From Candidatus Bathyarchaeota archaeon (GTDB lineage: Archaea > Thermoproteota > Bathyarchaeia > TCS64), in NCBI GenBank assembly GCA_041304265.1, contig JBFYNQ010000113.1, positions 1 to 33,170 on the forward strand: DNA of 33,170 nt. Reading direction: 5' to 3'. A program made the position numbers and the translations under genes. A model generated the notes under the pieces. That model did not search any database and was not told where the DNA came from. It worked only from the letters and a program-made list of their open reading frames with translations. How positions within the stretch are numbered: the first letter of the stretch is position 1; every line of letters begins with the position of its first letter. This document shows, in pieces, positions 2,450 through 31,099 of the stretch.

Positions 2450-3631
2450 ATGACGACGAACAAGCACGAAGCCCCAAAGAACTCGAAGAAGAAGGACGAT
2501 AAGGAGAGTGGGGAGGCACACGCCTACACGCCTGGTCTCAAGGTCAAGCGCGCCATCACGGTCGAGAAGCTCCGCAGGCTGCCAATTCCAGGGGAGGTCT
2601 TGCACAAGGTCGGGGATAAGGTCAACTACGACGCCAAGGTCGCGAGAACCGAGATCAGCGGTGAGCCCGAGATCGTAAAAGTTGCAATGGTACTCGGCGT
2701 TGAGGCTGAGGACATGGCCAGATTCATGCTGAAGAAGGTCGGCGACAAGGTGAAGCAGGGTGAGAGCATCGCCTTCTACAGCGCCCTGTTCGGCCTCATC
2801 AAGAAGGATGTCCCGAGCCCAAGGGACGGCACAATCGAGTCAGCCTCAGAAGTCACTGGACAGGTGATCGTCAGGGGCTCCCCGATACCCATCGAGGTGG
2901 ACGCCTACCTTCCCGGCACGATCGTCACCGTAGTTCCTAGGGAGGGCGTAGTCGTGCAGACGCACGGCGCCTTCATACAGGGCATCTTCGGCATTGGCGG
3001 CGAGGTGCACGGCGAGATTAAGACCATCACCGCCAACAACGAGGAGATGGTGACGCCTGAGAAGATCATGCCAGACTGCAAGGGCAAAGTACTCATCGGC
3101 GGCTCGCTCATCACCCTTGAGGCGATGAGGAAGGCTGCCGAGGTCGGAGCATCTGCCCTTGTTGTCGGAGGCGTGCGCCACCAGGACCTGACTACCTTCA
3201 CGGGGCAAGAGATTGGAGTTGCCATCACGGGGCAGGAGGAGGTCGGCTTCACCCTCATCATCACCGAAGGATTCGGCAAGATGAACATGAGTGCAACCAC
3301 CTTCAAGCTCCTGAAGAGCTTCGAGGGCTATCTCGCCTGCGTAAACGGAGCCACCCAGATCAGGGCCGGCGTACTGAGGCCAGAGATCATCATCCCACAC
3401 GAGGAGAAGCTGGAGGAGAAGAGCGATGCGTTCGCGATGGGAATGGTCCCTGGGACGCCGGTCAGGATTATCCGTCAGCCCTACTTTGGCGCAATCGGGG
3501 TCGTGGACACGCTCCCAGTTGAGCTTCAGGCTATGGAATCGGAGAGCATGGTACGTGTACTCACCGTGAAGCTCGCCGACGGCAGGACCGCGACGGTGCC
3601 CAGGGCAAACGTCGAGATCATCGAGGAGTAA
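2450..3631 (+). CDS. conserved hypothetical protein with an N-terminal barrel-sandwich (lipoyl/biotinyl-like) segment, cotranscribed with the GlmL-like ATPase
   Basis: 393-aa ORF. Its ATG is 1 nt after the upstream TAA (taaAatg). The segments GDKVNYDAKVA and VGDKVKQGESIA resemble hybrid-barrel motifs. The rest was not recognised. Confidence 0.6.
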   Translation: MTTNKHEAPKNSKKKDDKESGEAHAYTPGLKVKRAITVEKLRRLPIPGEVLHKVGDKVNYDAKVARTEISGEPEIVKVAMVLGVEAEDMARFMLKKVGDKVKQGESIAFYSALFGLIKKDVPSPRDGTIESASEVTGQVIVRGSPIPIEVDAYLPGTIVTVVPREGVVVQTHGAFIQGIFGIGGEVHGEIKTITANNEEMVTPEKIMPDCKGKVLIGGSLITLEAMRKAAEVGASALVVGGVRHQDLTTFTGQEIGVAITGQEEVGFTLIITEGFGKMNMSATTFKLLKSFEGYLACVNGATQIRAGVLRPEIIIPHEEKLEEKSDAFAMGMVPGTPVRIIRQPYFGAIGVVDTLPVELQAMESESMVRVLTVKLADGRTATVPRANVEIIEE

Positions 3632-7998: not shown

Positions 7999-8400
7999 TC
8001 AAGAGCTGATCTTTTCGGCGAAGAGGCGCATAATGACCTTGTGGTCCTCCTCAAGGTCTAGGCGATCCACCTCGCCGCGCCCTATCCAGAATGTCTCCTC
8101 CGCCTCGGTGCAATGGGGCTCACCAACCCAATCCTCGCAGATGAACCACCTGTTCAACTGAGACTCTACGTCAGTGATGCAGAGCATCCTGTCGTAAAAG
8201 GTGAAGCGATTGCATTTGACCCCGAGTTCCTCCCACAGCTCCCTCCTGCACGCCTCCTCATAGGACTCACCGGACTCAATGTGGCCGCCGGGGATGACGA
8301 CGGCGCCGGGGAATGTCTCTCTGTCCTCCCTCCGCCTCTCAACTAGGACCTTCCCGCCCCTGACGAGGATGAAGCTGACAGTGTCGACCGTCTTCTTCAT
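7999..8400 (-). CDS. Nudix hydrolase (MutT-like)
   Basis: Nudix box GGHIESGESYEEACRRELWEELGV. I prefer the ATG at 8400 (MKKTVD) over the TTG at 8421, which would overlap the upstream gene. Confidence 0.85.
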   Translation of the reverse strand: MKKTVDTVSFILVRGGKVLVERRREDRETFPGAVVIPGGHIESGESYEEACRRELWEELGVKCNRFTFYDRMLCITDVESQLNRWFICEDWVGEPHCTEAEETFWIGRGEVDRLDLEEDHKVIMRLFAEKISS

Positions 8401-8408
8401 GTTGACCG

Positions 8409-9245
8409 CTACTTTTGGCAACCCGGGCAGTAGTAGACCTGGCCGCCGCCATGCGCCATCTGCTCCACCTTAGACCCGCAACGGGGACAACCCGCGTCCT
8501 TCATGCTAGGGCCCATCCTCGGCGCGTAGCCACCCGGCTTGCCGAAGAGGTCGACGAACTCGCCCTTGCCCCCGAGGCGCAGCCTCTCCTCGATGAGGTC
8601 GTTCACGGCGGGGTAGAGGGCGTCGGCCTGGCTTGGGGTAAGCTCTGAGGTCTTCGTGTGGGGGTGTATACCCGCTCGCCAGATTATGTCCTGGAAGGCG
8701 CTGTTGCTCAGCCCAGTTACAATGGCGTCCTTGCCTACGAGGATGGGCTTAAGCTGTGTTCCCTTCGATTTGATTAGTTTTCGGAACTGCTCCTCGGTCA
8801 AGTCGAGGGGGTTTGACGCGCCGAGGTAGTCGCGCTTGTACATATAGAGCCCGGGGAGTTGCTCATCGCGGGCTGCGTAGATCAGCCCCATGCTTGTAAG
8901 GCGCACGGTAAGAGAGTCGCCGCCTGCGAAGCCGACGTGTAGGTGGTGCCTCGCCTCCTCGCCGCGGGGGTGGTAGAGGATGACGCCGCCGTATTCCGGC
9001 GCGAGAATTAGGTTCATCCCCCCATCCAGCTTGACCCTGAGAGTGTTCCCGCTGCTCCCAGCTCCCTCGACGCGCCTGCCGATGAGCTGCTTGAAGTCAT
9101 CAAGGTTCTTGTTGATGAATCCGATTCGGATCAGTTTCTCGTAGTCCTTGAGGTCGTAGGATTCGATGATCTTGCCCTTTATGGTCTCATCGAGCTGCTT
9201 CGCGAGTATGCGTGCCTCGGGGTATTCGATGCTCACACCGTTCAC
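8409..9245 (-). CDS. Fpg/Nei-family (H2TH plus zinc-finger) DNA glycosylase-like protein lacking an N-terminal proline
   Basis: H2TH region LKPILVGKDAIVTGLSNSAFQDIIWRAGIHPHTKTSEL. C-terminal zinc finger CPRCGSKVEQMAHGGGQVYYCPGCQK. The N-terminus MNGVSIEYPEARIL aligns to the canonical MPELPEVE, but the Pro is internal. GTG start. Confidence 0.75.
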   Translation of the reverse strand: MNGVSIEYPEARILAKQLDETIKGKIIESYDLKDYEKLIRIGFINKNLDDFKQLIGRRVEGAGSSGNTLRVKLDGGMNLILAPEYGGVILYHPRGEEARHHLHVGFAGGDSLTVRLTSMGLIYAARDEQLPGLYMYKRDYLGASNPLDLTEEQFRKLIKSKGTQLKPILVGKDAIVTGLSNSAFQDIIWRAGIHPHTKTSELTPSQADALYPAVNDLIEERLRLGGKGEFVDLFGKPGGYAPRMGPSMKDAGCPRCGSKVEQMAHGGGQVYYCPGCQK

Positions 9246-9289: not shown

Positions 9290-10174
9290 CTAGAGGTTGA
9301 TAAGGAGGACGGCTGCGAGGGTCAGTGCGATGCCGAGGGCGTTGATTCTACTGATCTTCTCCTTGAAGATGAGCCATGCCAGTATGGTGACTAGGAGCAG
9401 ACCCCCAGAGTTTACGAGCGGGAAGACCACCGCCCCTGGGAGCAGCGTCAAGGCGAGCAGAGTGGATAAGTTGACACCTATGTTGCATATCCCCACAGCG
9501 CCCCCGTAGGCAAAGTCGCGCGGAGTAATCTCGCCTTTGTATTTCAGGGCGATGGGTATGGTCATCAGTGTCGCCGCTGTAAAGACGACTACGAAGAAGG
9601 CATCCCTCTCCGCCCCGAGGCCGGATGCGACGAGTACCTTCGAGGTGAACTGGGCAAAGCCTTGCACTACGAGCTGGACGACTATGAGTGCGAGCGTCTC
9701 CCGGTCGAGTGCGCCGTTGAGACCACTTTCCCTCGACGCGAGGAGGGGCAGCGAGACGAGTGCTACGCCAACTCCGATGAGCTGGGTAACGCCGAGACTA
9801 TCGCCGTAAAGCGCCACCGAGAGACTCACGGGAATGAGAACCGAGAGCTGACTCGCTGAGACTGCTATCGATGCGCCGCGCCTACCTATCGTGGTCATTC
9901 CGAGATACATCCCGCCTATGTAGAGGAGACCACTGATGACGCCGAGGCCTATAGTGAGCAGCGAGGCGGAGTGAAAGCCGTTGAGGGCGAACATGACGAA
10001 GCTGAGCGTGAGTGCTACGCAGTAGTTCGCGGCGATGACACCCCACCGAGTCTTTATCGACTTGACAGCGAGTCGATTAACCATGTTTATGCCGGTTATG
10101 GCGATTATACCCGAGATGACGAACGCCATCGGGGGCACACCTGAGAGGTCCAAGATTGTACCAAGCAGACCCAC
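9290..10174 (-). CDS. DMT-superfamily (EamA-like) membrane permease
   Basis: 294 aa with about 10 hydrophobic helices in two similar halves. GTG start at 10174, with an alternative ATG at 10129. Family call is by topology only. Confidence 0.6.
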   Translation of the reverse strand: MGLLGTILDLSGVPPMAFVISGIIAITGINMVNRLAVKSIKTRWGVIAANYCVALTLSFVMFALNGFHSASLLTIGLGVISGLLYIGGMYLGMTTIGRRGASIAVSASQLSVLIPVSLSVALYGDSLGVTQLIGVGVALVSLPLLASRESGLNGALDRETLALIVVQLVVQGFAQFTSKVLVASGLGAERDAFFVVVFTAATLMTIPIALKYKGEITPRDFAYGGAVGICNIGVNLSTLLALTLLPGAVVFPLVNSGGLLLVTILAWLIFKEKISRINALGIALTLAAVLLINL

Positions 10175-10199: not shown

Positions 10200-11006
10200 T
10201 TAGTAGCCAGCTTTCCGGAAGATGGCTTCAGCAGATCGACGTGCAGTTGAAACGCCCGACAGTTTCAACAACGACTCTCCGCATAGTACGGCCCTCGCGA
10301 GGTCATCATCAGCCGCCAGCTTGCCGAGGTATCTCTCCCCAGTCTTCGCCTCAACCTCGGCTTCCCAACCTTCAGGAAATCTGTAGTTACCGACGACGAA
10401 GAACCTTTTACATATCAGATTAAGATCGCCCAGCAGCCTGCGGCTCCTCCTTACGTGGTCGAATGCCTTCTGGGAGGGATCTATAATATCGAAGATGTCA
10501 TCAACTGCAGGGGTTACGCGGCGGTTAAGCTGCTCGAGCCCGGCGGGGCTGTCTATGATAACGTGGCGGTAGCTACGGATCATGCCCGTAAACGCCATCT
10601 TCATCGCCATGTTCGGCGTGCAGTAGCATCCCTCACCCCACTTCACGCCAAGCGTGATTAGGTCGAACCCTCCACCCTCGTAGAGCCCCTCGCCCCAGAT
10701 ACGTGCCTCCAGCTTCTCGATTGGAAATGGCTGAGGACGATCGGTACCGTCATTTTCCCTCTCCATGGTATCGAGTAGAAGCTCGGAGACTGTTGACTTA
10801 CCGGCAGCCAATAAGTCGACACCAATCATCTCGGCGAGGTTCATATCTGGGTCGAGGTCGACAAGTAGGATAGGAGTTTCGCCCTTCTCAAGGAAGTGTG
10901 CGGCGAGAAGGACTGTGAAGCTGGTCTTCCCGGTTCCGCCCCTACCCACGACGGCGATACGCTCCAAAAAAGTCACCAGTTTACGGTTATCGCCTTCTGG
11001 GGACAT
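10200..11006 (-). CDS. CooC-type P-loop NTPase (MinD/ParA superfamily metal-insertion accessory protein)
   Basis: Deviant Walker A VVGRGGTGKTS, then LVDLDPDMNLAEMIG, and the CooC-style metal-binding motif GEGCYCTPN (CxC). The start is ambiguous. ATG 11006 or GTG 11018 would overlap the upstream gene. GTG 10976 would form a GTGA start/stop overlap with the ferredoxin gene. Confidence 0.8.
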   Translation of the reverse strand: MSPEGDNRKLVTFLERIAVVGRGGTGKTSFTVLLAAHFLEKGETPILLVDLDPDMNLAEMIGVDLLAAGKSTVSELLLDTMERENDGTDRPQPFPIEKLEARIWGEGLYEGGGFDLITLGVKWGEGCYCTPNMAMKMAFTGMIRSYRHVIIDSPAGLEQLNRRVTPAVDDIFDIIDPSQKAFDHVRRSRRLLGDLNLICKRFFVVGNYRFPEGWEAEVEAKTGERYLGKLAADDDLARAVLCGESLLKLSGVSTARRSAEAIFRKAGY

Positions 11007-11230
11007 GCCTTGACACACTTACCGCAACGCGTGCAGAGGTCGGTCCAGACGGCGGTGACCTGCCAAAGATCAGGGTCGTACCGGTTCTTCTGCTTAGCCC
11101 CAATTGTCTCGTGGCGGATAAAGACGGTAGGGTCGCAAGTCTTGAGACACACCCCGCATTCGCGAGGATCGATGCCTCCCGTCGCGTTACCACACTTTTT
11201 CTGGTCGATGTTGATCCGCGTCCAGCTCAT
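10973..11230 (-). CDS. small 4Fe-4S ferredoxin-domain protein
   Basis: 85 aa with CTRCGKCVKACP (CxxCxxCxxxCP) and a second, looser motif C...CGVCLKTCDP. Its ATG is 2 nt after the upstream stop. Confidence 0.75.
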   Translation of the reverse strand: MSWTRINIDQKKCGNATGGIDPRECGVCLKTCDPTVFIRHETIGAKQKNRYDPDLWQVTAVWTDLCTRCGKCVKACPQKAITVNW

Positions 11231-11232
11231 GG

Positions 11233-12102
11233 CTAGTACTGCCCCCTGAGACCAGGGACCTCCTCGCGTGGGATGAGCCCCAATGCGTCAAATTTGCACG
11301 CGTCCCGGCATAAACCGCAGCCGAAGCACTTGTTCTGGTCGATAATCACCCTCTTGAGAGTGGCGTTATACCTTATAGCACCGAACTGGCAGCGAGCCAC
11401 ACACCTCATACAGCCCTGACACATGTCGGGGTTAACCTCAGCCACGTACTCCGCCTTGTAAACGGTATGTATACCGAAGTCGTTGCGTAGACGTAGTCCA
11501 CCGCACTGGGGTACCTCGCAGCTGCAAATCGCGTTGATGTAGGGCACAGGCTGGAACCAGACAGTGCTCACCCTGCCCTTACGGTTCTGCTCCTCGAGCG
11601 CTGCCACCGCCTCGTACCGCGTCAACCGCACCTTTGTACCTTCCGGAATAAACCGGGGCAGCTTCTCGATCACCCCACTCAAAGCACCGAAGTTGATGCA
11701 ACAGACATCCTTGCACCCCTTCTGCATCCAGCGACACATACAATAGTTCTGGATTATGGGCTCCGCAGCGAGCGTCAGCATGATAGTCTTCGCCTCCTCG
11801 ATGGGTATGACCTGCCCGAAGTGACCATCAGCGCGCACCGGATTCCTGTGAGCGCCTTCGCTGTGTATCATCCTCTCAGCCTGCCAGCGGATCGCCCTTC
11901 CGATTATGGGCATACGCAGCTTATACCCGAGCCCAATACTGCTCATCCCCATCATCTTCCTGATGTAGACCTGCTCGAAGTTCATCCACTGCTCCGTCAG
12001 GTACGCTTCCATCTGCATCTGCTCTGCGAGCTCGTTTGAGTAGTTGCGGGCGTTGAGGTACCACTTGCCACCGGCGCCGTGCTTCATACACCACTGGCAC
12101 AA
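11233..12102 (-). CDS. Cys-rich Fe-S protein with N-terminal CxxC and a C-terminal 2x[4Fe-4S] ferredoxin domain (function unknown)
   Basis: 289 aa. N-terminus M-CQWC-MKHGAGGKWYLNARNY. Further Cys clusters NYCMCRWMQKGCKDVCCINFG and ICSCEVPQCGG. Classical motifs CQGCMRCVARC and CFGCGLCRDAC. TTG start at 12102 keeps the CxxC. TATA-like box at 12131-12139. Confidence 0.75.
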   Translation of the reverse strand: MCQWCMKHGAGGKWYLNARNYSNELAEQMQMEAYLTEQWMNFEQVYIRKMMGMSSIGLGYKLRMPIIGRAIRWQAERMIHSEGAHRNPVRADGHFGQVIPIEEAKTIMLTLAAEPIIQNYCMCRWMQKGCKDVCCINFGALSGVIEKLPRFIPEGTKVRLTRYEAVAALEEQNRKGRVSTVWFQPVPYINAICSCEVPQCGGLRLRNDFGIHTVYKAEYVAEVNPDMCQGCMRCVARCQFGAIRYNATLKRVIIDQNKCFGCGLCRDACKFDALGLIPREEVPGLRGQY

Positions 12103-12130
12103 GGCTGGATCGAATCTATTCTCCTCGTAG

Positions 12131-12139
12131 AAAATTTAA
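12131..12139 (-). promoter_or_regulatory. TATA-like box for the Fe-S/ferredoxin/CooC operon
   Basis: TTAAATTTT on the minus strand, about 33 nt upstream of TTG 12102. Confidence 0.4.
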
Positions 12140-12160
12140 CACCATTGACGGTGTGCGGAA

Positions 12161-12168
12161 GTTAAATA
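12161..12168 (+). promoter_or_regulatory. TATA-like box for the PEP-utilising phosphotransferase gene
   Basis: GTTAAATA centred about 28 nt upstream of ATG 12193, directly preceded by GTGCGGAA. Confidence 0.4.
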
Positions 12169-12192
12169 CGCTAAACCGGCAAGCCTCATATC

Positions 12193-14877
12193 ATGTCTTC
12201 GCGGGTGCTGACGGTGGATCTCGCCGACGCCTCAAGAGCGGATATGGCGCGTGTTGGCGGAAAAGCGGCCAACCTAGGCGAACTCATCGACCAAGACTTC
12301 CCCATCCCAGGCGGATTCATCGTCACCACAGACGCCTACGCTCTCTTCGCCGAGGAGAACAATCTACAAACCACCGTAAACGCCGAGCTCGCCATGATCG
12401 ACTTCGAGAACCCCGACTCCGTCGATGAACACGCCGCCAAGATAAGAGCGGCGGTGGAATCTGCCCACATCCCAGAGGCGCTTGCCACAGAGATCGAGGA
12501 ACACTACACTAGGATGGGTAGAACGCCCGTCGCAGTCAGATCATCATCTACTGCCGAAGACCTTGCCTCAGCCAGCTTCGCCGGTCAGCTCGAGACTTAC
12601 CTGAACATTAAGGGTTGCAAGAGCATAACCGAGGCTGTGAAGAGGTGCTACGCCTCCCTCTGGTCCGGAAGGGTGCTCGCCTACGCAAAGCGCAGCGGCC
12701 TCGACGCTAAAGACGCCAAGATGGCTGTCCTCATCCAGCATATGGTTCCCTCAAGGAGCGCCGGCGTCATGTTCACTGTCAGTCCCCTTAGCACAGACGG
12801 CTCCGAGTTTCTCATAGAATCCACGCTAGGGCTCGGCGAGGCACTGGTGTCTGGGGCTGCGACTCCGGACAAGTATGTCCTCGGCAGGAACGGGGACGGG
12901 ACGTTCAGGATGCTAGCCAAGGAAATCAGTGCCAAGGGCAAGATGGCCCGCGCTTTCAAGGGAGGCGTCGAATACGTCGACCTCACTCCCGCCGAGGGAT
13001 CACAGCCGAGCCTAACCGATGAACAGGCGCTCAGCCTCGCCTCCCTTGGCGAGAAGATAGAGACACGCATGGGAACACCTCAGGACATAGAGTGGGCGAT
13101 AGGTGATGACGATCAGCTATACATCCTTCAGTCTCGCCCAATCACGACCATCCGAGCCGAGAATCCTGACGAGATTGTTTGGACGCGGGGGTACAGCGAC
13201 GACTACTGGAACGACCCAGTTACACCCCTCTACTTTGAGCTTCTCGGCGACCACATCACTCAGTATGTGAACGTCGAGCTCAACGAGATAATGGGATATA
13301 AGAGCCTCGATGCCCCGAAAACAAGGCAGCTCCTCAAGCTCCACAAGGCGCACGCGTACCTCAACCTCGAGGGCCACAAGCGGAAGGTAGAGAACGAGAT
13401 ACCTCCATTCCTTAGGAACGACGACGTGCTCAACTACTTCCCTGAGGGTTCCGGCCCCTACGGGAAGGATGTGATGAGAGGGTTACGCTTCAACATCACG
13501 GGGAGGTTGCTCGCGGAGATTCGGGTCGCGCTAAATGACCCAAATGGTGGTGGGGGGAGAACGGATAAAGCGTATGTCGCGTGGAGTGACTCCACGTTTG
13601 ATCCTTTCTTTGCCGGTTTCCCCGCCCGCATGGAGGTGCTGGATGGTAAGCCGCTCTCAGATTACGTCGCCCTCGCGGATGAGATTCATGACCTCATGAT
13701 CGGTCACTACCGCCTCGTACGCTATGGCATACCTGTCCACAACATCGGCATGAACCTGCTAACTCAGTATCTCCTCGCGCGCTTCCTTGGTGCCGAGGAG
13801 GGGCGTCGGGTTTACCCGATACTAGTCTCTGGCCTCAGGGATAAGACGAGGGAGACGAACGAGCGGATCGGGGAGCTAGCCACTGCCGTTAGGGCGTCCC
13901 CCGATCTCCAGAAACTGATTATCTCCAAGCCCTCGCCGAAGCTCTATGCACTCATCTCATCTTCCAAACTACCCGATGTATCGGACTTTAAACAACTGTT
14001 CGATGCATTCATCGCCGAGTATGGTGCTAGGGGATTCACACGTGAAGCCTACTACCCACGCTGGGGAGACGAGCCCGCCTACGTCTTCGACATCCTCAAG
14101 TCACTGGTCTCAGGCGAGGCGGTGGACACCACTGCTGCGGGGGAGAGAAGCGCTAAGGTGAGGCAGGAAACCGAAACGAACGTCAGAAAACAGATCGACG
14201 TCCAGTTCTTAGGTTTCGCTAAGTGGGCGCTATTCTCTAACATAATTGGGATGGCCCGCCGTTACATAGTCTTCAGGGAGAAGCAGCGTTTCAACCTCGA
14301 CAGATGGATAACAATGGTGCGAAGACTCCACCTAGTTATCGGGGCGCGGCTTGTGGAGGACAGGGTGCTTCGTTCCGCCTCGGATGTCTTCTTCCTCACG
14401 AAAGCGGAGCTTAGAGACATCGCAAACGGAGCAGTATTCACCGATGTGTTGACTACAGTCGCCTCCAGGAAAGCGGATTTCGAAAAGTACGAGAATGCTA
14501 CGCCCCCCAAGTTCCTACAGGGAGATAGAGAATTCAATGACCCTCCCCCCGAAGGAATCGACAACTTCAAGGGCATTCCCGCCAGCCAAGGCGTGATCAC
14601 CGCTACTGTCAGGGTCCTAGACGGTATAGAGAATATCTGGCAGGTACAGACCGGTGAGATACTCGTCGTCCCACGTACAGATCCGGGGTGGACACCAGTC
14701 TTCAGCAAAATCGGCGGCCTCATCACGGAGACCGGGGGAATACTCAGCCACGGAGCTGTCGTCAGCAGGGAGTATGGCATCCCTGCCGTCACGAACATTC
14801 CCGGTGCGTGTAGGAGATTCAAGACGGGACAAAGAGTGACAATAGACGGGGTCAAAGGAGAGGTAACCGTTGAATAA
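12193..14877 (+). CDS. PEP-utilising enzyme family phosphotransferase with rifampicin-phosphotransferase-like architecture
   Basis: N-terminal PPDK_N/ATP-grasp signature (ADMARVGGKAANLGEL, SSSTAEDL..ASFAGQ). C-terminal swivelling phosphohistidine domain TETGGILSHGAVVSREYGIPAVTN. The roughly 430-aa central region shows no PEP/pyruvate TIM-barrel motifs that I recognise. Confidence 0.8.
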   Translation: MSSRVLTVDLADASRADMARVGGKAANLGELIDQDFPIPGGFIVTTDAYALFAEENNLQTTVNAELAMIDFENPDSVDEHAAKIRAAVESAHIPEALATEIEEHYTRMGRTPVAVRSSSTAEDLASASFAGQLETYLNIKGCKSITEAVKRCYASLWSGRVLAYAKRSGLDAKDAKMAVLIQHMVPSRSAGVMFTVSPLSTDGSEFLIESTLGLGEALVSGAATPDKYVLGRNGDGTFRMLAKEISAKGKMARAFKGGVEYVDLTPAEGSQPSLTDEQALSLASLGEKIETRMGTPQDIEWAIGDDDQLYILQSRPITTIRAENPDEIVWTRGYSDDYWNDPVTPLYFELLGDHITQYVNVELNEIMGYKSLDAPKTRQLLKLHKAHAYLNLEGHKRKVENEIPPFLRNDDVLNYFPEGSGPYGKDVMRGLRFNITGRLLAEIRVALNDPNGGGGRTDKAYVAWSDSTFDPFFAGFPARMEVLDGKPLSDYVALADEIHDLMIGHYRLVRYGIPVHNIGMNLLTQYLLARFLGAEEGRRVYPILVSGLRDKTRETNERIGELATAVRASPDLQKLIISKPSPKLYALISSSKLPDVSDFKQLFDAFIAEYGARGFTREAYYPRWGDEPAYVFDILKSLVSGEAVDTTAAGERSAKVRQETETNVRKQIDVQFLGFAKWALFSNIIGMARRYIVFREKQRFNLDRWITMVRRLHLVIGARLVEDRVLRSASDVFFLTKAELRDIANGAVFTDVLTTVASRKADFEKYENATPPKFLQGDREFNDPPPEGIDNFKGIPASQGVITATVRVLDGIENIWQVQTGEILVVPRTDPGWTPVFSKIGGLITETGGILSHGAVVSREYGIPAVTNIPGACRRFKTGQRVTIDGVKGEVTVE

Positions 14878-14881
14878 CAAA

Positions 14882-15841
14882 ATGGAACCGTTGATACACA
14901 AACCCGGGGCGCACCGGGAGTGGAACGAAAGTTACTACCTCTGCTTCAGCGACAGGTTGAATAGTATAAGTGGAATGACTCGCCTCGGATTCAAACCAAA
15001 CAAGCAAGAGGCGACGACATTCTTTCTCCTATTCCTCCCGGATGGATCCGTCGCTGGTTTCCAAGCCACGGAGAAGATGAGTGGAACCAGAGATCACCTC
15101 AGAGTTGCGGGAATGACACATGAAAGGCACCCCGACGGCTCGTGGCACTACACATTCCAAGGCATGATGGCCGTCGTAAAGAATCCCGCGGACTTTCCAA
15201 AGATCAGGGAGAAACCAACCCTTATCACCGCGATGCTCCCCATCGCGATGCGCCTAGCGTTTCACCCAATCCAGCCCACATACGAATATAGCGAGAACAT
15301 GACCCCAGAGTCACTGGAGATCGGTAAGAAAAGTGGCGACGAACACTGGGAGCAGATGGCGAAGATAGACGGAGAGCTCAAGGTAGGGGACAGTGTGTAT
15401 GCCCTTCGCAACGTCCTCGGGGAGCGCGACCACACACACGGTGTCCGCGACTGGACGGGAATAGGCAACTGGATCTACTACGTGGTCTGGTTCAACGAGC
15501 ACCTCGCCATAAACCCGGCGGCCATCGTCCTCGACGATGGACGAATCAGCGTCGGCGGCTACATATGGAAAGAAGGCGAGAATACTCCACTTGTCGGGTT
15601 CAGGATATTAGACCAACAGTTCATTGACAGCGTAGTTCCAGTGAGCTCGGTTCTTGAACTGACAGATAAGAAGGGAGTTATACACGTCCTAAGGGGGAGG
15701 GCAGGCCCCGTCGTGCCTTTACCATTCGTTGATGAGAAGGGCGGGATCTCCGTCCTTGCGCAGAGCTTCGGCGAGTATGAACTCGACGGCGTCAAAGGGG
15801 GTTACGGTACATACGAGACACTAAGGGTCGCAAGGTCTTAG
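14882..15841 (+). CDS. uncharacterised protein (motifs WNESYY and GERDHTHGVRDW), coupled to the phosphotransferase
   Basis: ATG at 14882 is 4 nt after the upstream stop. The TTG at 14870 would overlap that stop. The sequence has no hydrophobic helices. The motifs recall an uncharacterised DUF family (RDHSWG-type), from memory only. Confidence 0.6.
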   Translation: MEPLIHKPGAHREWNESYYLCFSDRLNSISGMTRLGFKPNKQEATTFFLLFLPDGSVAGFQATEKMSGTRDHLRVAGMTHERHPDGSWHYTFQGMMAVVKNPADFPKIREKPTLITAMLPIAMRLAFHPIQPTYEYSENMTPESLEIGKKSGDEHWEQMAKIDGELKVGDSVYALRNVLGERDHTHGVRDWTGIGNWIYYVVWFNEHLAINPAAIVLDDGRISVGGYIWKEGENTPLVGFRILDQQFIDSVVPVSSVLELTDKKGVIHVLRGRAGPVVPLPFVDEKGGISVLAQSFGEYELDGVKGGYGTYETLRVARS

Positions 15842-24676: not shown

Positions 24677-25534
24677 GTGTCAGCGACGACGGATGAGGAA
24701 CGGAAGGGCGAGGACTTCGTCAAGCGTGTAGAGGAGCTAAACCAGCTTAGGGCGCGCATGAGCAGGGTCAAGCACAAGATCGCAGTGATGAGTGGCAAGG
24801 GTGGCGTAGGCAAGAGCCTCGTCACAGTCAACCTTGCCGCGGCTCTTGCAGCAGGAGGCATGAGGGTTGGCGTCCTCGACGCTGACATCCACGGCCCAAC
24901 GGTGCCGAAGATGTTCGGCATGAAGGGGGCGAGGCTCGAGGCGAGCACCGGAGGCGGTATCATAGCGCCTATTTCGCCGGCGGGTATCAAGGTTGTATCA
25001 ATGGACTTCCTCCTCCCGACACAGGACTCACCCGTCATCTGGCGCGGCCCACTCAAGATGTCGGCTATACGCCAGCTGCTTTCCGACGTCGAGTGGGGTG
25101 ACCTTGACTATCTCCTTGTCGACCTCCCACCAGGGACCGGCGACGAGGCACTTACAGTGCTCCAACTGCTTCAAGACATCGACGGCGTCGTCATCGTGAC
25201 TATGCCAAACGAGGTGAGCGGGCAAGTCGTCGAGAAGTCTGTAAGCTTCGCAAGGCAGCTCAAGGCGCCGGTTATCGGCCTCATCGAGAACATGAGTTAC
25301 CTCATATGCCCCCACTGTGGTGACAGGATAGCCCTCTTCGGCAAAGGCGTAGGAGAGTCGATAGCCGTGAAGATGGGCGTGCCTTTCCTCGGAGCGATCC
25401 CCCTAGAGCCCGGCGTCGCTAAGGGATCAGACACCGGTAAGCCATTCGTCATGGAGAACCCTGACAGCTCCGCCGCCAAGGCGTTCAAGGTGATAGTTGC
25501 GGGCATAGAGAAGTTCGTCGGCTCAAAGCCGTGA
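24677..25534 (+). CDS. Mrp/NBP35 (ApbC) family Fe-S cluster carrier ATPase
   Basis: IAVMSGKGGVGKSLVTVNLAAALA deviant Walker A. CPHCG motif. GTG start about 29 nt downstream of a TTTATTA box. Alternative ATG at 24761. Confidence 0.88.
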   Translation: MSATTDEERKGEDFVKRVEELNQLRARMSRVKHKIAVMSGKGGVGKSLVTVNLAAALAAGGMRVGVLDADIHGPTVPKMFGMKGARLEASTGGGIIAPISPAGIKVVSMDFLLPTQDSPVIWRGPLKMSAIRQLLSDVEWGDLDYLLVDLPPGTGDEALTVLQLLQDIDGVVIVTMPNEVSGQVVEKSVSFARQLKAPVIGLIENMSYLICPHCGDRIALFGKGVGESIAVKMGVPFLGAIPLEPGVAKGSDTGKPFVMENPDSSAAKAFKVIVAGIEKFVGSKP

Positions 25535-27347: not shown

Positions 27348-28661
27348 TTGAGTTTCAGCGGGGAGAAAGCCTTCGAGTATATGAAAAAACTCGCAGTAGA
27401 TATCGGGCCACGGCCAAGCGGCACAGAAACGGAGAGGAAAGCCGCGGAGTGGATAATGTCAGAGTTCGAGAGGCTCGGCTACGACGCGAGAATAGAGGAG
27501 TTCGACGCCTTCACGGGGATAATTAAGGCTCAGAAGCTGGAGGTTTTAAAACCCTACAAAGCAGAGGTCGCCTGCGAAGTCATGCCCCTCTCGGGAGGCA
27601 CCGGCGCGAAAGGGGTGACCGGAGAACTGCTCTACCTCGACACATACGACGAGGAGTACATCACCCCCGAGGTGAAGGGCAAGATCATAATCACTGGCGG
27701 AGCCCCCGCCAACAGGGACCGCGCCTTCGCCCAGCTCAAGAAATACAAACCAGCGGGCATCATAATCATCGAGTCCACCCCCAAGGCGATGGCGAAGAAC
27801 CTATGGGGCAGCCCAACCTTCCGCAAGAAGTACGTCGATATACCTATGGTCAGGGTCGCCTTCGAAGATGGCATCAACCTCGTAAAGTCAGGCGCCAAGA
27901 CGATGCGCCTCGTCGCCATCACCGAGGAGAAGACGATCAAGACCCAGAACGTCGTCGCCGAATTAAAGGGCACGACTCGCCGAGAGGAGATCATAGTAGT
28001 CTGCGGACACTACGACACAGTCCTGGAGGTCCCCGGCGCCGGCGACAACGCGGGAGGCACCGCCATCACCCTCGAACTCGCACGCGTCTTCAAGAAGAAG
28101 GGCACGAAGAGAACGATGCGCTTCATCGCCTGGGGATGCGAGGAGCTCGGACTGCTCGGAAGTAGGGAGTACGCGAGGAGGCTCAGGACGGAGAGCGAGG
28201 CGGAGAAGAAGGCAGACAAGAACGCCGTCACCGAGCTCGACAACACCGTCCTCTGCCTCAACCTCGATGTCCACGGCGGCATGATAGGCACGAACGTCGC
28301 CAAGATACTCGGCCCACCCGAGCTAACTGCATCCGTGAAGCTGCTCAGCAAGGAGAAAGGCACGGTCTTCGCCGTTTCAGAGGGCGTTTACTCATCCGAC
28401 GGCACGCCTTTCTCCGCAGTCGGGGTACCCAGCCTATCACTCAGTAGGGAGACGCCCACAAACCTCCTCATGCACAGCAGAGAAGACGTGGAGAAGTGGC
28501 TCTGCCCCGAGGCACTGGAGGCACACGGCCTCTTCGCCGAGGAGTTCCTCATCCGTTATGCTGCCGAGGCCGCTGCGTGGCCCTTCGAAAAGACGATACC
28601 CGAGAAGCAGAAGAAAGAGATCGAGGACTATTTCAAGAAAGCGGGGAGAAAACTCCCCTAA
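27348..28661 (+). CDS. M28-family aminopeptidase with PA domain
   Basis: CGHYDTV...GAGDNAGGTAITLELARVF...RFIAWGCEELGLLGSREY are M28 zinc-ligand motifs. The TTG start keeps the conserved N-terminal AFEYMKKLA..IGPRPSGT. Confidence 0.85.
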   Translation: MSFSGEKAFEYMKKLAVDIGPRPSGTETERKAAEWIMSEFERLGYDARIEEFDAFTGIIKAQKLEVLKPYKAEVACEVMPLSGGTGAKGVTGELLYLDTYDEEYITPEVKGKIIITGGAPANRDRAFAQLKKYKPAGIIIIESTPKAMAKNLWGSPTFRKKYVDIPMVRVAFEDGINLVKSGAKTMRLVAITEEKTIKTQNVVAELKGTTRREEIIVVCGHYDTVLEVPGAGDNAGGTAITLELARVFKKKGTKRTMRFIAWGCEELGLLGSREYARRLRTESEAEKKADKNAVTELDNTVLCLNLDVHGGMIGTNVAKILGPPELTASVKLLSKEKGTVFAVSEGVYSSDGTPFSAVGVPSLSLSRETPTNLLMHSREDVEKWLCPEALEAHGLFAEEFLIRYAAEAAAWPFEKTIPEKQKKEIEDYFKKAGRKLP

Positions 28662-30463
28662 TCCTCTTCCTCGGGGTTCTCCTCAATCCAGCTGAACTTC
28701 TTCTGCAGCGTCGAGGGATAGTAACTGCGCCAGTCGTAGCCGACCCTGCGCCCCCAGTTGAGGTAGATGCGGGGGTCGACGTAGTTCTTCAGGCTTGTTC
28801 CGAGGTTATAGTCGCGTGTTATCTCCTGCGCTTCGACCTGCAGCCTCATTCGCTCGACTGTCTCTCTGTCGCGCTTCCGCTTCTCCTCTAGTTGCTTCTT
28901 CAGCTTGAGAGAGGCAGTCACGTAGTTATTTTTGAGTTTGCGGACGCGTTCGCGAGCCGCCTTCAAGGCTTTATGCGCTGTGTCAAGTCGCTTCTTCGGC
29001 GCTTTGAGTTCGGCTCCGGTCTTCTCGGCCTCGGCTAGTTTTGTCCTCTGAACCTCTTCTTTTTCCTCAACCATGACTAGTCTTTTCTCGGCTTCGACCA
29101 GTTTTGCGCGGTACTTTTTCTCCTCGTCAATGATCTTAGCGCGGAGTGCCTTCTCGTCGGCTGATACCTTGGCTTCGAGTTGCTTTAAGTGTGACTTCTT
29201 TTTTTCGAGGCTCTGCTGCCAGGTCTTGGGGATTGTGCGCTTGTGGTTGCAGATTATGGCGGCTTCAAGGTTGGCTCGGAGGGCGGCTTGGCGCTTAACG
29301 TAGTCGGGGTCCTCGGGTTTGACGATCTCTTTGGCGAGTCTGCCTCCGACGGCGTCTGTTGCGTATAAGGTCCTGAAGACCTTGGCGCTGAGCCCCTCCA
29401 TAATCTCTTTTAAGAAGTCGCCTACGTGGCCCGAGTTTATGCCCTCGAATAGGCTCTCCTTCCCCGCCCCGCTGGCGAAATCGCGGAGGTTGGTCACCAC
29501 CTTTGGGGGCAGGGGGGCTGTGATGTTCATCGGCACCGAGTCCTTGCCGAGGAAGTTGAAGGTGACCGAGCCATCCATGTTGAAGCAGACGTGCTCTGGG
29601 CGGAGGGTGCTTGCGCCCACCGTATCGGCCTCGTCCTCGTCGTCTTTCTCGTCTCCGACTCTGAACTTAAGGCGGTCGATAAGGTAGCAGACCGTCGCCG
29701 TCTTGCGCCGCTTGAGGTCGGCGGTGGTGAGGTTGCCCTCTATGTGCGCCTTGACCTCGTCGAGTTTCTCCTTGAGGGCGTGAGCCTTCTCATACTTCTC
29801 CATGTCCTTCCTCTGCTTGAGGAAGCTTGCGTCGCCGGGCCAGACGTACTTCTTCTTGCCGCTGAGCTTGTCTGTCCAGCGGGCGATCCACATAGTGCCC
29901 GGCTCCCAGACTATCGCCTTCCAGTTGCCCGGCGGGTGCAGGGCGTCTGGGCTGAGGTTGAGCTCTATGTCCTCATACTGGGGACCCCTCTTCCACCTGC
30001 CCCTCCAGGGGTGCTGGCCGCGGCCCATGAAGATGCTATTTGGCTCCACATTGTAGTTGCCGAGTTCCATCCGCTGCTCGTCGAGCGTGGCGTAACCGTA
30101 CTTCTCCTTGTTGGCGTCGCGCTGCGCCTTCCGCTCAGCTGCCTGCGCCTTCTTCACCTCGGGGGGGAGGTTTTGCTTCTCCTCGCGCTCGCGCTGCACG
30201 ACCCTGATTATGGCGGTAAAATCTACTTCGCCAGGTTTCAGTTCGAGGCCGAGCGCCTTGCCGAAATCCTCATGGAAGTTCTCGGCGAACTTGGGGTCGT
30301 CGACGTAGGGTGTGCCGACCTTCTTTGCCCAAGCGACTGCCATCTCCTCCTGCTCGTCGCTAAGGCTGACTGGCTGGCCCTTGATGTTGACTGTGAAGCC
30401 GCGCGACTTGTACTTGGGGGGGACGATGACGCCGTTGTGGTGGAGTGTGTTCACGCTATGCAC
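28658..30463 (-). CDS. eukaryote-type DNA topoisomerase IB
   Basis: All five catalytic-residue contexts are present: TLRPEHV, FLGKDSV, SAKVFRTLYAT, ICNHKRT, and LGTSLKNYVDPRI (active-site Tyr). A long coiled-coil linker lies between the core and the C-terminal domain. GTG at 30463 (or 30454) sits downstream of a TTTTTATA box at 30498-30505. The longer ORF to 30592 would overlap the neighbouring gene. Confidence 0.9.
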   Translation of the reverse strand: MHSVNTLHHNGVIVPPKYKSRGFTVNIKGQPVSLSDEQEEMAVAWAKKVGTPYVDDPKFAENFHEDFGKALGLELKPGEVDFTAIIRVVQREREEKQNLPPEVKKAQAAERKAQRDANKEKYGYATLDEQRMELGNYNVEPNSIFMGRGQHPWRGRWKRGPQYEDIELNLSPDALHPPGNWKAIVWEPGTMWIARWTDKLSGKKKYVWPGDASFLKQRKDMEKYEKAHALKEKLDEVKAHIEGNLTTADLKRRKTATVCYLIDRLKFRVGDEKDDEDEADTVGASTLRPEHVCFNMDGSVTFNFLGKDSVPMNITAPLPPKVVTNLRDFASGAGKESLFEGINSGHVGDFLKEIMEGLSAKVFRTLYATDAVGGRLAKEIVKPEDPDYVKRQAALRANLEAAIICNHKRTIPKTWQQSLEKKKSHLKQLEAKVSADEKALRAKIIDEEKKYRAKLVEAEKRLVMVEEKEEVQRTKLAEAEKTGAELKAPKKRLDTAHKALKAARERVRKLKNNYVTASLKLKKQLEEKRKRDRETVERMRLQVEAQEITRDYNLGTSLKNYVDPRIYLNWGRRVGYDWRSYYPSTLQKKFSWIEENPEEED

Positions 30464-30497
30464 CGGGGGGCTTTGATGAATACCGGGTGGCCCCTCT

Positions 30498-30505
30498 ATA
30501 AAAAT
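30498..30505 (-). promoter_or_regulatory. TATA-like box for the topoisomerase IB gene
   Basis: TTTTTATA on the minus strand, 39-48 nt upstream of the candidate GTG starts at 30463 and 30454. Confidence 0.4.
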
Positions 30506-30521
30506 TACCCAAAGACTGGGG

Positions 30522-31097
30522 TCATAAGGTGAGCGCCTTCTCCAGGTCGCCGACGCTAAGCATGGCGCTGAAGCGCTCCGCTGGCTTCCCACCCATGAAG
30601 ATGATCACAGTTGGGATGCCCATGACGTTGTACTCCTTCCACTTCTCCGTGTTTGTGACGTCTATCTCGTAGTAGTCGGCGCCTGTGTGCTTCTCGGCGA
30701 GCGCCTTGAACTGTGGCTTGATGACCCGGCAGGCTGGGCAGCCCTCGCTGCTAAATAGGAGGGCGACAGGCCTGCCCGCCCTGAGCACTTTTTCTTGGAA
30801 GTCGCCGTCGGTGATCGGGGTGATCGCCTTGGACTCTCCCCTACTGAAGAGGCCCCTGAGCTTCGAGAGTGGGCCCGGGTACTTTTTGTAGGCGACCTGG
30901 TAACCGACGTCCTCGATCGCCTTCTCGATGGCAGTGAGGGGCACGGTGTCCTCCATCGTGACCTTGATGGTCTTCTTGAGATAGTTACCCTGCGCTTTCG
31001 TGACGCCGGGGACCTTCATCACCGACTTCTCAAGCGTGACGACGCAGGTGGGGCAGTCCATGCGGGTGATACCGATCTCCTTTGTGACCTCGGGCAT
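30522..31097 (-). CDS. fusion protein: N-terminal heavy-metal-associated (HMA) domain plus C-terminal thioredoxin domain
   Basis: HMA motif MDCPTCVVTLEKSV. Thioredoxin-fold region VALLFSSEGCPACRVIKPQF...GIPTVIIF (CPAC active site and cis-Pro). Its ATG is 2 nt after the CopA stop. Confidence 0.8.
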   Translation of the reverse strand: MPEVTKEIGITRMDCPTCVVTLEKSVMKVPGVTKAQGNYLKKTIKVTMEDTVPLTAIEKAIEDVGYQVAYKKYPGPLSKLRGLFSRGESKAITPITDGDFQEKVLRAGRPVALLFSSEGCPACRVIKPQFKALAEKHTGADYYEIDVTNTEKWKEYNVMGIPTVIIFMGGKPAERFSAMLSVGDLEKALTL

Positions 31098-31099
31098 AG

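Follow-up and report, generated by a model that had tools for sequence, protein, structure and literature searches.

An archaeal Fe-S protein and ferredoxin pair followed, in one lineage of Bathyarchaeia, by a CooC-type ATPase paralog

To our knowledge, the only role known for ATPases of the CooC family is the maturation of CODH and ACS. Known Ni sites include the Cys-Gly-Cys motif of ACS and the hook of NiSOD, and in related SIMIBI ATPases Fe-S clusters are bound by Cys motifs at the dimer interface. CODH/ACS is common in Bathyarchaeia, Asgard archaea and Methanomethylicia. In CooC1, residues Cys112 and Cys114 bind Ni/Zn at the dimer interface, and not all CooC proteins bind Ni tightly (PMC6006190).

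Two further systems resemble the locus described here in part. IsrA is a bacterial, putative isoprene reductase from the isr operon of Acetobacterium wieringae; it is not biochemically characterised, and its proposed role is the reduction of unactivated C=C bonds (PMC10134865). The protein holds an unannotated N-terminal Cys6 site, located at the end of a substrate tunnel, in which two CxC motifs lie 74 residues apart, the second being 33 residues before a Fer4 motif (PMC10134865). Genes for Ni chaperones are frequent neighbours, as 73% of IsrA homologues adjoin HypA and 56% adjoin HypB (PMC10134865). The other system is that of 25-hydroxysteroid kinase (25-HSK) and 25-phosphosteroid lyase (25-PSL) in Sterolibacterium denitrificans, in which an alcohol is phosphorylated and the phosphate is then eliminated to give an alkene; in this organism the surroundings of the kinase gene contain no candidate for the lyase (PMC8449060, PMC11061730).

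The locus analysed here lies in a window of 33,170 nucleotides, the whole stretch of Bathyarchaeial DNA that was studied, and its source is an uncultured soil archaeon. As the original prediction had described, three minus-strand genes are tightly packed. Gene A (11233..12102, TTG start) encodes a 289-aa Fe-S protein, gene B (10973..11230) an 85-aa 2x[4Fe-4S] ferredoxin, and gene C (10200..10976, GTG start) a 258-aa CooC-type P-loop NTPase. Read from the sequence, the TAG stop of A is followed after 2 nt by the ATG of B, and the tetranucleotide GTGA joins the TGA stop of B to the overlapping GTG start of C. The longest open reading frame of C spans 10200-11018; the start was set at the GTG at position 10976 because homologue lengths of 255-259 aa support it. 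Database searches returned 355 relatives of A and 1607 of C, and such large sets indicate genuine genes rather than chance reading frames. The top 120 of the 355 relatives of A are 61-91% identical to it over the full length.

On the other side of A, a divergent intergenic region of 90 bp between A and gene D (12103..12192) contains two A+T-rich TATA-like boxes, at about 12130-12139 and 12162-12169, which are putative promoter elements. A gene of the EamA transporter family (Pfam EamA; 9290..10174, minus strand) begins 25 nt downstream of C, and the order A-B-C-EamA recurs in loci L007-L011, L013 and L092. This gene, on the same strand as C, is probably the last one of the A-B-C transcription unit in the clade of C described below, and we only infer that the transporter belongs to the functional system. 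The reported lack of CODH/ACS, hydrogenase and urease in the window was borne out by domain searches of every open reading frame of at least 120 aa. Likewise, no Prismane, CO_dh, CdhC or CdhD domain was found in the window or in any A-B-C locus.

The most constant part of this arrangement is the pair A-B. Among 80 species-level archaeal genome loci (Bathyarchaeia, Asgard archaea, Methanomethylicia, Korarchaeia and others), 78 have B immediately after A, both exceptions being contig ends. Moreover, the two proteins occur fused in P0142, which was read in sequence, and in P0188 and P0248, the last two with an extra Fer4 pair. Protein B matches Fer4_7 (36.1 bits) and Fer4 (34.4 bits) above cut-off; its first motif, read from the sequence, is an atypical Cx11CxxCxxxC, and the second is canonical. 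A and B are a conserved core, in which B is the obligate partner of A. Across phyla, A is 66-99% identical (60-90% in its N-terminal domain), which places it among the most conserved proteins common to Bathyarchaeia, Asgard archaea, Methanomethylicia and Korarchaeia. For most of these lineages we know of no cultured representatives. Outside this range, a distant bacterial member of the family (L097) is a stand-alone gene in an uninformative context, and a homologue search started from another distant member, P0161, yielded no more than a handful of unnamed proteins.

Protein A contains 18 cysteines, at positions 2, 5, 121, 123, 130, 134, 135, 193, 195, 200, 228, 231, 234, 238, 259, 262, 265 and 269, and every motif previously listed for it is present, namely CQWC, CMCRWMQKGCKDVCC, CSCEVPQC and two CxxCxxCxxxC motifs. 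The C-terminal domain is a 2x[4Fe-4S] ferredoxin built on C228/231/234/238 and C259/262/265/269, with residues 220-275 matching Fer4 (41.7 bits) and Fer4_7 (30.6 bits) above cut-off. The N-terminal domain of about 215 aa carries eight conserved cysteines (M1-C2-x-x-C5, C121-x-C123, C135, C193-x-C195 and C200), which are kept down to 25% identity, together with the invariant non-Cys residues G96, Q97, R124 and P187. Codon 2 is Cys in all 80 loci, which fixes the N-terminus. Cys130 and Cys134 had also been considered as a mark of a special system and were rejected, since neither is conserved.

Outside the Fer4 region, A gave no match in Pfam or NCBIfam, nor in PDB sequences when searched as a single sequence or as a profile. 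The AlphaFold2 model has a pLDDT of 85 over the full length and 92.9 over the N-domain, where it predicts a folded alpha/beta domain of 215 aa. A Foldseek search of the PDB with this domain found no fold match (best E = 1.2, TM at most 0.21), and the full-length model returned ferredoxin-domain matches only. Identification of A as a CODH, an ACS or a hybrid-cluster protein was rejected, as Pfam and NCBIfam gave no Prismane, CdhC or ACS match and Foldseek no such fold. The N-domain thus appears structurally unprecedented and outside known families and, since it has no family or solved relative and is yet highly conserved, it is a strong candidate for harbouring a metallocofactor site of a new type.

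A published parallel to this domain is the Cys6 domain of IsrA (cluster V), compared by spacing with the published values; in A, six cysteines are invariant. The distances between the two CxC motifs and from the second CxC to the Fer4 motif are 72 and 33 residues in A and 74 and 33 in IsrA, a likeness of motif spacing only. A ferredoxin gene belongs to the operon in both systems, and Ni-chaperone genes adjoin that of IsrA. IsrA is proposed to reduce C=C bonds, and an alkene is the predicted product of the D/E pair next to A. The chaperones there are HypA and HypB, whereas here it is a CooC paralog that stands by A-B (in 4 of the 80 loci, and in all contexts of its own clade). A also lacks the NfnB-like FAD/NAD(P)H module inserted in IsrA. 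A may be connected to bacterial isoprene reductase and would then offer its proposed active-site module in a small form that stands alone. A tblastn search of plasmids for an IsrA-type sequence gave no match, and YgfK of E. coli was discarded as a comparison, its N-terminal part being without a CxC pair. Close-spaced cysteines and CxC pairs also recall ferredoxin:thioredoxin reductase and the CxC/CCG sites of HdrB type, suggesting a non-standard cluster and possibly redox-active cysteines, as noted for IsrA too (PMC10134865); A nevertheless has no Pfam FTR or CCG match and no fold match among the solved PDB structures searched.

Genes D and E run divergently from A. Gene D (12193..14877, plus strand) encodes an 894-aa dikinase resembling PEP synthase and rifampin phosphotransferase (Rph), with a PPDK_N ATP-grasp domain (312 bits), an unassigned central domain and a PEP-utilizers swivel domain (82.5 bits) that contains GGILSHGAVV. 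It shares the ATP-grasp and the swivelling His domain with Rph, and its best PDB matches, 5fbs and 5hv1 (E = 4e-95), are Listeria Rph structures. It falls below every NCBIfam equivalog cut-off, those of PEP synthase, Rph and PigC included, and so is an equivalog of none of these three. D differs from Rph and Pps in its linked partners, a lyase-like protein and an enzyme of Fe-S type, a linkage that we know of for neither Rph nor Pps.

Gene E (14870..15841, plus strand) starts 8 nt before the end of D and encodes a 323-aa protein with DUF7065 (39.2 bits) and DUF7064 (37.7 bits), two families for which a literature search gave no papers. The profile of the E family matches the 25-PSL structures 9fzn, 9g2i and 9g4c (E = 1.2e-11); the match between a 25-PSL fragment and DUF7065 runs over the full length but, at E = 0.0014, falls below cut-off. 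E is, by these profile comparisons, a remote homologue of 25-phosphosteroid lyase, and its lyase function is putative. The logic shared with Sterolibacterium is that of an alcohol which is phosphorylated and then converted to an alkene by phosphate elimination. Here the kinase is translationally coupled to the lyase-like gene and is of PEP-synthase/Rph type, not of 25-HSK type, and the molybdenum hydroxylases of the Sterolibacterium system are absent. Sterols are an unlikely substrate in these archaea.

D and E are linked to A-B in 44 of the 80 loci, where the genes are arranged in at least four different ways, and E-type genes are present in 42, mostly adjoining A or B. The remaining 36 loci lack D/E, some of them being short contigs. 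Where A is 67-70% identical, D is 32-41% and E 21-33% identical, a conservation gap that is unusual for one pathway. The recurrent linkage nonetheless offers a concrete, testable hypothesis, in which an alcohol passes through a phosphoester and an alkene to a reduced product.

Protein C has both features attributed to it in advance, the deviant Walker A motif and the CxC motif of CooC type, and both align with those of CooC1 of Carboxydothermus hydrogenoformans (3kje). GRGGTGKT (residues 11-18) corresponds to GKGGVGKT, and GCYC, within GEGCYCTPN, to QCYC, which holds Cys112 and Cys114 of CooC1. The pattern G-R-G-G-x-G-K is invariant in 19 relatives of C, and a check of the CxC motif among its relatives found C117 and C119 invariant. 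The best PDB matches are CooC1 (E = 9e-12), ArsA (2.5e-7) and MinD (7e-6), and C stays below the cut-off of every NCBIfam equivalog; in fold class, MinD/SIMIBI, it agrees with CooC/AcsF proteins. The signature Lys of Walker A is Arg in C, but this residue was rejected as an operon-specific mark, as all members of the Bathyarchaeial CooC-like group have it, the cdh-linked ones included.

Phylogenetically, C belongs to a monophyletic clade of CooC paralogs marked by a PQ[PR]FP insertion (hereafter the signature clade), with 58-93% identity and an invariant P-loop and CxC. Every signature-clade context that could be read, about 17 in all (the window, L007-L013, L092, L093, L095 and L098-L103), lies directly behind A-B. 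A deep lineage of the clade keeps the A-B-C linkage at 58% identity in C, 54% in D and 81% in A, and in each of the two deep branches C either overlaps B or abuts on it. The sister clade, in contrast, sits at cdh operons or elsewhere: among its 74 metagenome loci, none is near A or B and 34 are at cdhA-E, whereas C has no CODH/ACS nearby. The nearest relatives of C outside its clade, at 50-56% identity, stand directly beside cdhA-E. It is also common for sister-clade genes to lie apart from cdh, with feoB and DtxR-like genes among the neighbours seen.

Seen from A, the linkage is rare. C stands behind A-B, within 10 kb, in 4 of the 80 species-level loci and is absent from 76, so the expectation that homologues of A would generally be accompanied by a CooC-like gene did not hold. 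In C-less loci, the only other P-loop chaperone candidates near A-B are three weak MinD-like matches 2.4-6 kb away, and no HypA or HypB was recognised among the recurrent neighbour clusters, judged by eye rather than by HMM. No residue of A co-varies meaningfully with the presence of C, position 288 being the sole exception, so that A bears no sign of a particular requirement for C; together with the 4 of 80 loci, this means that an adjacent CooC is not generally necessary for A. The exclusive position of the clade behind A-B is, on the other hand, the pattern expected of a dedicated accessory factor and speaks against an accidentally parked CooC of CODH. The original proposal that the CooC homologue matures a metal centre in its neighbour is thus partly supported: the few linked loci speak against it as a general rule, and the signature clade speaks for it. 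C resembles a dedicated helper confined to one lineage and not a maturase used throughout.

Taken together, these features suggest, with about evenly balanced confidence, that A-B is a two-subunit redox enzyme in a D/E alcohol-to-alkene pathway, with C as an accessory deliverer of metal or clusters. Obligate pairing and fusions point to a complex of A and B of ferredoxin type. Electrons would pass from the two [4Fe-4S] clusters of B to the two C-terminal clusters of A and on to a special metal-sulfur site, presumably held by the eight conserved cysteines of the N-domain. By homology, conserved neighbourhood and analogy with 25-HSK/25-PSL, D and E would be an ATP-dependent kinase and phosphate-lyase pair converting an alcohol into an alkene, and A-B would carry out a redox step on their substrate or product, most plausibly the reduction of a C=C bond. 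The C lineage would have split from the cdh-associated CooCs of Bathyarchaeia and become the translationally coupled third gene of the A-B operon in one part of this group. Most likely, C would use NTP to supply the N-domain of A with a cluster or with a metal ion, which might be Ni; this role would be accessory and not obligatory because most A-B-bearing archaea have no C next to A-B.

A far-reaching version of this reading, which we regard as improbable, is that the N-domain holds a new kind of Ni (or other heterometal) Fe-S active site loaded by a client-specific CooC paralog, and that A and B reduce an unactivated C=C bond made by D/E. The site would include a free N-terminal Cys2/Cys5/His8 hook and the two CxC pairs, and the whole would amount to a pathway of ATP-driven reductive dehydroxylation that occurs widely among Asgard and TACK archaea and has a bacterial relative in isoprene reductase. 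If true, C would be the first CooC-family maturase outside CODH/ACS. A CooC paralog lineage tied to any other client would already widen the scope of Ni and metal-cluster maturation.

Other explanations have to be weighed against the two-subunit enzyme with an accessory C. C may be a passenger, that is, an ordinary maturase of CODH/ACS or another Ni enzyme that was relocated behind A-B and has no functional tie to it. The cdh-side position of its closest non-clade relatives agrees with this, as do the Walker A (GRGGxGKT) and GCYC motifs, identical in the A-B-linked and cdh-linked groups, the frequent location of sister-clade genes away from cdh, and the roughly 95% of lineages that run A-B with no linked C. 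We nevertheless find it decidedly doubtful, as the A-B-linked genes form a clade of their own with a diagnostic insertion, their linkage spans a divergence as deep as that of D and holds in all of the roughly 17 contexts read, and start-stop overlap or abutment with B is kept; such consistent persistence would be unexpected after random relocation. Alternatively, A-B could be a polyferredoxin-like wire serving D/E or other enzymes, in which the extra cysteines bind ordinary clusters or Zn, C is a generic Fe-S carrier of Mrp/NBP35 type, and no new catalytic metal site exists. The sole recognisable domains of A and B are indeed 2x[4Fe-4S] ferredoxins, eight cysteines suffice for two more cubanes, and the interface clusters of related SIMIBI ATPases would fit a carrier. 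This wire is unlikely in our view, though somewhat less so than a passenger, since a conserved 215-aa alpha/beta domain with invariant non-Cys residues exceeds the needs of cluster loops, and neither CxC pairs nor an invariant N-terminal MCxxC is usual for a cubane site. Furthermore, the best match and motif of C are of CooC and not of Mrp type, a true Mrp/NBP35 gene lies elsewhere in the window (24677-25534), and in the IsrA analogue a substrate tunnel ends at a similar Cys6 site (PMC10134865).

At the opposite extreme, A might always need a CooC-type Ni insertase, with C-less lineages relying in trans on HypAB or on the cdh-associated CooC. CODH/ACS is common in many A-bearing groups, and a dedicated CooC paralog exists. 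IsrA homologues co-occur with HypA and HypB (PMC10134865), and the two CxC motifs and N-terminal Cys2 of A resemble the ACS and NiSOD sites mentioned above and Cys2 of CooT (PMC6006190). Such an obligate Ni enzyme is nonetheless about as hard to credit as the passenger, given that 95% of loci have no chaperone nearby, that tight Ni binding is not universal among CooC proteins (PMC6006190), and that domain searches of the window found no Ni transporter.

Some variation within the D/E part of the system was also seen. A protein of about 388 aa, c3, was considered as a split-off central domain of D and rejected (hhalign probability 0.8%); it has no Pfam, NCBIfam or PDB match. At the Asgard loci, separate genes encode the parts of the kinase, as in phenylphosphate synthase and HpeHI (PMC12167813).

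The operon consists of three tightly packed open reading frames on the minus strand within 10200-12102 of the window. The first gene, A (11233-12102, -), begins with a TTG codon and encodes a Cys-rich Fe-S protein of 289 aa, and B (10973-11230, -) encodes a small 2x[4Fe-4S] ferredoxin of 85 aa. The third gene, C, encodes a CooC-type NTPase; its longest open reading frame spans 10200-11018, but the GTG codon at 10976 is taken as the start (10200-10976, -), because the resulting 258 aa agree with the closest relatives (255-259 aa). The TAG stop codon of A is separated by a 2-nt gap from the ATG of B, and the TGA of B and the GTG of C share the sequence GTGA. This arrangement is as the original prediction had described it, and so are the 18 Cys of A, in exactly the motifs listed there, and the GRGGTGKT and GEGCYCTPN motifs of C. 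The absence of CODH, ACS, hydrogenase and urease genes near the operon also held, as no such domain was found in any open reading frame of the window with 120 aa or more. A near-identical contig from a Bathyarchaeota metagenome-assembled genome (MAG; locus L010) encodes an A protein that is 99% identical.

A and B form a conserved core. The protein collection contains 355 relatives of A, and the best 120 of them are full-length, 61-91% identical, and distributed among Bathyarchaeia, Korarchaeia, Thermoproteota and Asgard archaea under generic names only. A scan of species-representative genomes with A gave 182 loci, and the 80 most similar to the A of the window were fetched and inspected, with crude calling of open reading frames; these also span Brockarchaeota, Baldrarchaeota, Methanomethylicia, Theionarchaea and Thermococci-class MAGs. 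In tblastn searches with the window proteins, B lies immediately 3' of A in 78 of these loci, while the other two stop at a contig edge. Among distant family members the two proteins can be fused, as in the sequence of P0142, and the fusion-type members P0188 and P0248 have an additional Fer4 pair. Two contigs labelled in MAG records as Nanopelagicaceae bacterium (L086) and Nanoarchaeia (L037) carry typical archaeal A-B(-E) clusters, where E is a lyase-like gene, and are probably mis-binned.

The N-terminal domain of A belongs to no known family or fold. Pfam and NCBIfam matches, all of Fer4 types, are confined to the last 70 residues, and sequence searches of the PDB gave no match beyond the ferredoxin part. 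AlphaFold2 models are confident, with a pLDDT of 85 for the whole protein and 92.9 for the isolated N-domain; with Foldseek against the PDB, the full-length model was matched in the ferredoxin part only, and the N-domain model had no match (best E = 1.2, TM at most 0.21). In an alignment reaching down to about 25% identity, Q97, C121, C123, C135, P187, C193, C195 and C200 are invariant, M1, C2, C5, H8, G9, G11, W14, G96 and R124 are kept in at least 90% of the sequences, and C130 and C134 show no conservation. A HMMER search with the N-domain across 1.8 billion representatives yielded 250 clusters. Ten distant members were scanned in turn; apart from one odd Peptidase_C25 chimera, Fer4 was the only recognised family, and eight of the ten consist of the N-domain and Fer4 alone.

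In all 80 loci, codon 2 of A encodes Cys; 76 have a start codon at the M1 position, and 62 lack any in-frame start upstream. These data fix the N-terminus and imply that the 284-aa gene calls are mis-started. Many database calls (P0005, P0012, P0053 and other 284-aa entries, as well as L092:8881-9735) begin at the internal Met6 (MKHG...) and drop the conserved MCxWC N-terminus, the true start often being TTG or GTG. A protein of about 270 aa with a motif layout as in A (WCICR...C, ICNCCPCCC and two Fer4) is encoded just downstream of A-B in L032, L038, L039 and L043-L045 (e.g., L038:11168-11980, -). It matches the HMM of the N-domain weakly in only one of its six copies and is possibly a very distant paralog of A.

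Two genes divergent from A are linked to this core. D (12193-14877) encodes a kinase resembling PEP synthase and rifampin phosphotransferase, with PPDK_N and PEP-utilizers domains; among solved structures it best matches the rifampin phosphotransferase of Listeria (5fbs and 5hv1), and it scores under every cut-off of the NCBIfam equivalogs for PEP synthase, Rph, PigC and RedH. The last 8 nt of D overlap E (14870-15841), which contains DUF7065 and DUF7064. The profile of the E family matches 25-phosphosteroid lyase (25-PSL) in the PDB (9fzn, 9g2i, 9g4c) with an E-value of 1.2e-11, and the aligned 25-PSL fragment spans DUF7065 over its full length with an E-value of 0.0014, short of the family cut-off. 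Genes of D or E type accompany A-B in 44 of the 80 loci in several orders. The window clade, Brockarchaeota and Thermoproteota have E<D<|A>B, some Bathyarchaeia have D>E>A>B, and Methanomethylicia have A>B>|E<D<. Asgard archaea, in which the parts of the kinase are encoded separately, have PPDK_N< PEP-utilizers< c3> E> A> B>. The linkage thus outlasts rearrangement and spans phyla, which argues for a functional connection. Sequence change in the same loci is much slower in A than in D and E. The broader finding is thus an A-B module conserved among archaea, with an unprecedented Cys-rich domain and a tie to a kinase/lyase pair, and apparently none of its members has been characterised.

The c3 gene (about 388 aa; e.g., L080:12879-14045, +) occurs in 32 of the 80 loci and always adjoins an E-type gene. 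It has no match in Pfam, NCBIfam or the PDB, and a profile comparison revealed no similarity to the central domain of D. Many loci of Bathyarchaeia and Thermoproteota (L015, L016, L020-L029, L031 and L037) contain two different kinase/lyase-type modules around A-B, the first being D with E and the second a small PEP-utilizers protein with c3 and a second E paralog.

Among solved structures, C is closest to Carboxydothermus CooC1 (3kje, E = 9e-12), with the P-loop and the CxC motif aligned; the two Cys of this motif in CooC1 bind Zn or Ni where the monomers of the dimer meet (PMC6006190). Relatives of C fall into one group of 73-93% identity, always in the context E<D<|A>B>C> (L007-L009, L092, L093), and a large group of about 50-59%, in which P0375, P0341 and P0313 adjoin cdhABCDE and another member adjoins a ferredoxin and a NifH-like gene. 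Although P0308 shares just 58% identity with C, it too stands in the context D<|A>B>C (L095), where A, B and D are 81%, 66% and 54% identical to those of the window. All A-B-linked C proteins share a PQ[PR]FP insertion that is missing from the others, and they form a single clade in a neighbour-joining tree, that is, a dedicated clade of CooC paralogs. A metagenome scan added 80 loci, six of this signature clade and 74 without the insertion. B lies directly upstream in all six, together with A and D where the contig extends far enough, whereas none of the 74 is near A or B and 34 are at cdh. The split between the clades dates back as far as the divergence of the adjacent D gene. As anticipated, the CxC motif is conserved: neither GRGGxGKT nor GCYC varies in either clade.

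The remaining non-signature genes occur elsewhere, repeatedly near feoB, DtxR-type regulator and thioredoxin genes, which is a third genomic setting of this ATPase family. In L105, L108, L115, L126, L127, L149, L152 and others, the non-cdh genes also lie by NAD-kinase-like and radical-SAM activase genes. The role of general Fe-S carrier in this genome does not fall to C, since the window itself encodes a genuine Mrp/NBP35 (NUBPL-type) Fe-S carrier ATPase (24677-25534, +) 14 kb away from the operon.

The expected linkage of A homologues to CooC-like genes across genomes did not hold. C is present in only four of the 80 loci (L010-L013; L014 is cut off), and a profile search of all open reading frames in these loci found no other CooC-type protein, returning three weak MinD-like matches 2.4-6 kb away. 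Apart from position 288, no residue of A separates C-linked from C-less lineages. This scarcity, with no tracking residue in A, indicates that an adjacent CooC is generally not needed by A, and such a distribution could suit a C that merely travels with A-B and has no functional tie to it. In lineages that possess C, however, the contextual split between the two clades is argued to be the strongest evidence of a functional tie, and an unconnected C is considered quite improbable. The proposal that C matures a metal centre of A is thus upheld in part: C appears to be a lineage-specific, dedicated partner, placed behind A-B in all signature-clade contexts that were read, and not a universal maturase. 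It is also unlikely that A-B is a plain electron-transfer module, a reading that the Fer4 matches of A and the ferredoxin B would suit and that has to be set against the N-domain and its invariant Cys.

A further lead comes from IsrA, a putative isoprene reductase of Acetobacterium wieringae (PMC10134865). Its N-terminal region of about 270 aa has no predicted domain and holds six spatially close Cys, including the CxC pairs C180/C182 and C254/C256, and residues 289-300 then form a Fer4 motif; another protein encoded in the isr operon combines an IsrA-type N-terminal region with one Fer4 domain (PMC10134865). The authors proposed Ni binding and reduction of a C=C bond at the Cys6 site, and HypA and HypB lie within five genes of 73% and 56% of 988 IsrA homologues, respectively (PMC10134865). 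The CxC pairs are 74 residues apart in IsrA and 72 in A, the second pair precedes the first Fer4 Cys by 33 residues in both, and A has six invariant Cys in the corresponding region. This likeness in motif spacing hints at a possible homology. Among the recurrent neighbour clusters of A-B, judged by eye, there is no HypA or HypB.

In Sterolibacterium, a kinase of a type different from D acts with 25-PSL to convert a tertiary alcohol into an alkene by an ATP-consuming dehydration (PMC8449060, PMC11061730). By analogy, D and E may carry out an ATP-dependent dehydration, and A-B may work on the same pathway; electrons would pass from B through the Fer4 domain of A to its N-domain site, to which C would supply metal or a cluster. 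This overall picture, a redox enzyme A-B with C as a helper and a dehydration pathway of D and E, seems to us about evenly balanced between right and wrong. If A and IsrA were homologous, D and E would make an alkene, A-B would reduce it, and C would take the role of HypA/HypB; the specific reading of A-B as a Ni enzyme and alkene reductase is, however, doubtful.

Asgard loci (L073, L076, L078, L079, L082, L084 and L085; e.g., L076:8407-8892) repeatedly encode, some 6 kb downstream of A, an FKBP/SlyD-like protein whose tail is rich in Cys and His (…CEPDPPEAHECGCGCEHN). SlyD tails bind Ni in bacteria, and the recurrence may be mere synteny of related genomes. On the same strand as an EamA gene and following it, the window carries genes for an Fpg/Nei-like glycosylase (H2TH) and a NUDIX hydrolase (7999-9245, -), separated by short gaps or overlapping; this order is repeated in L092, and both genes probably have no connection with the Fe-S system. 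A 'MutL protein' family member of 623 aa (577-2448, +; PF13941, 391 bits) is followed after 1 nt by a 393-aa open reading frame without a Pfam match (2450-3631, +). A eukaryote-type DNA topoisomerase IB of 644 aa (28658-30592, -) contains Topoisom_I_N, Topoisom_I and Topo_C_assoc domains. Finally, an HMA domain-thioredoxin fusion (30522-31118, -) overlaps the start of a P-type ATPase gene (31100-33169, -) with an N-terminal YHS domain, and the two are a probable copper-handling pair.
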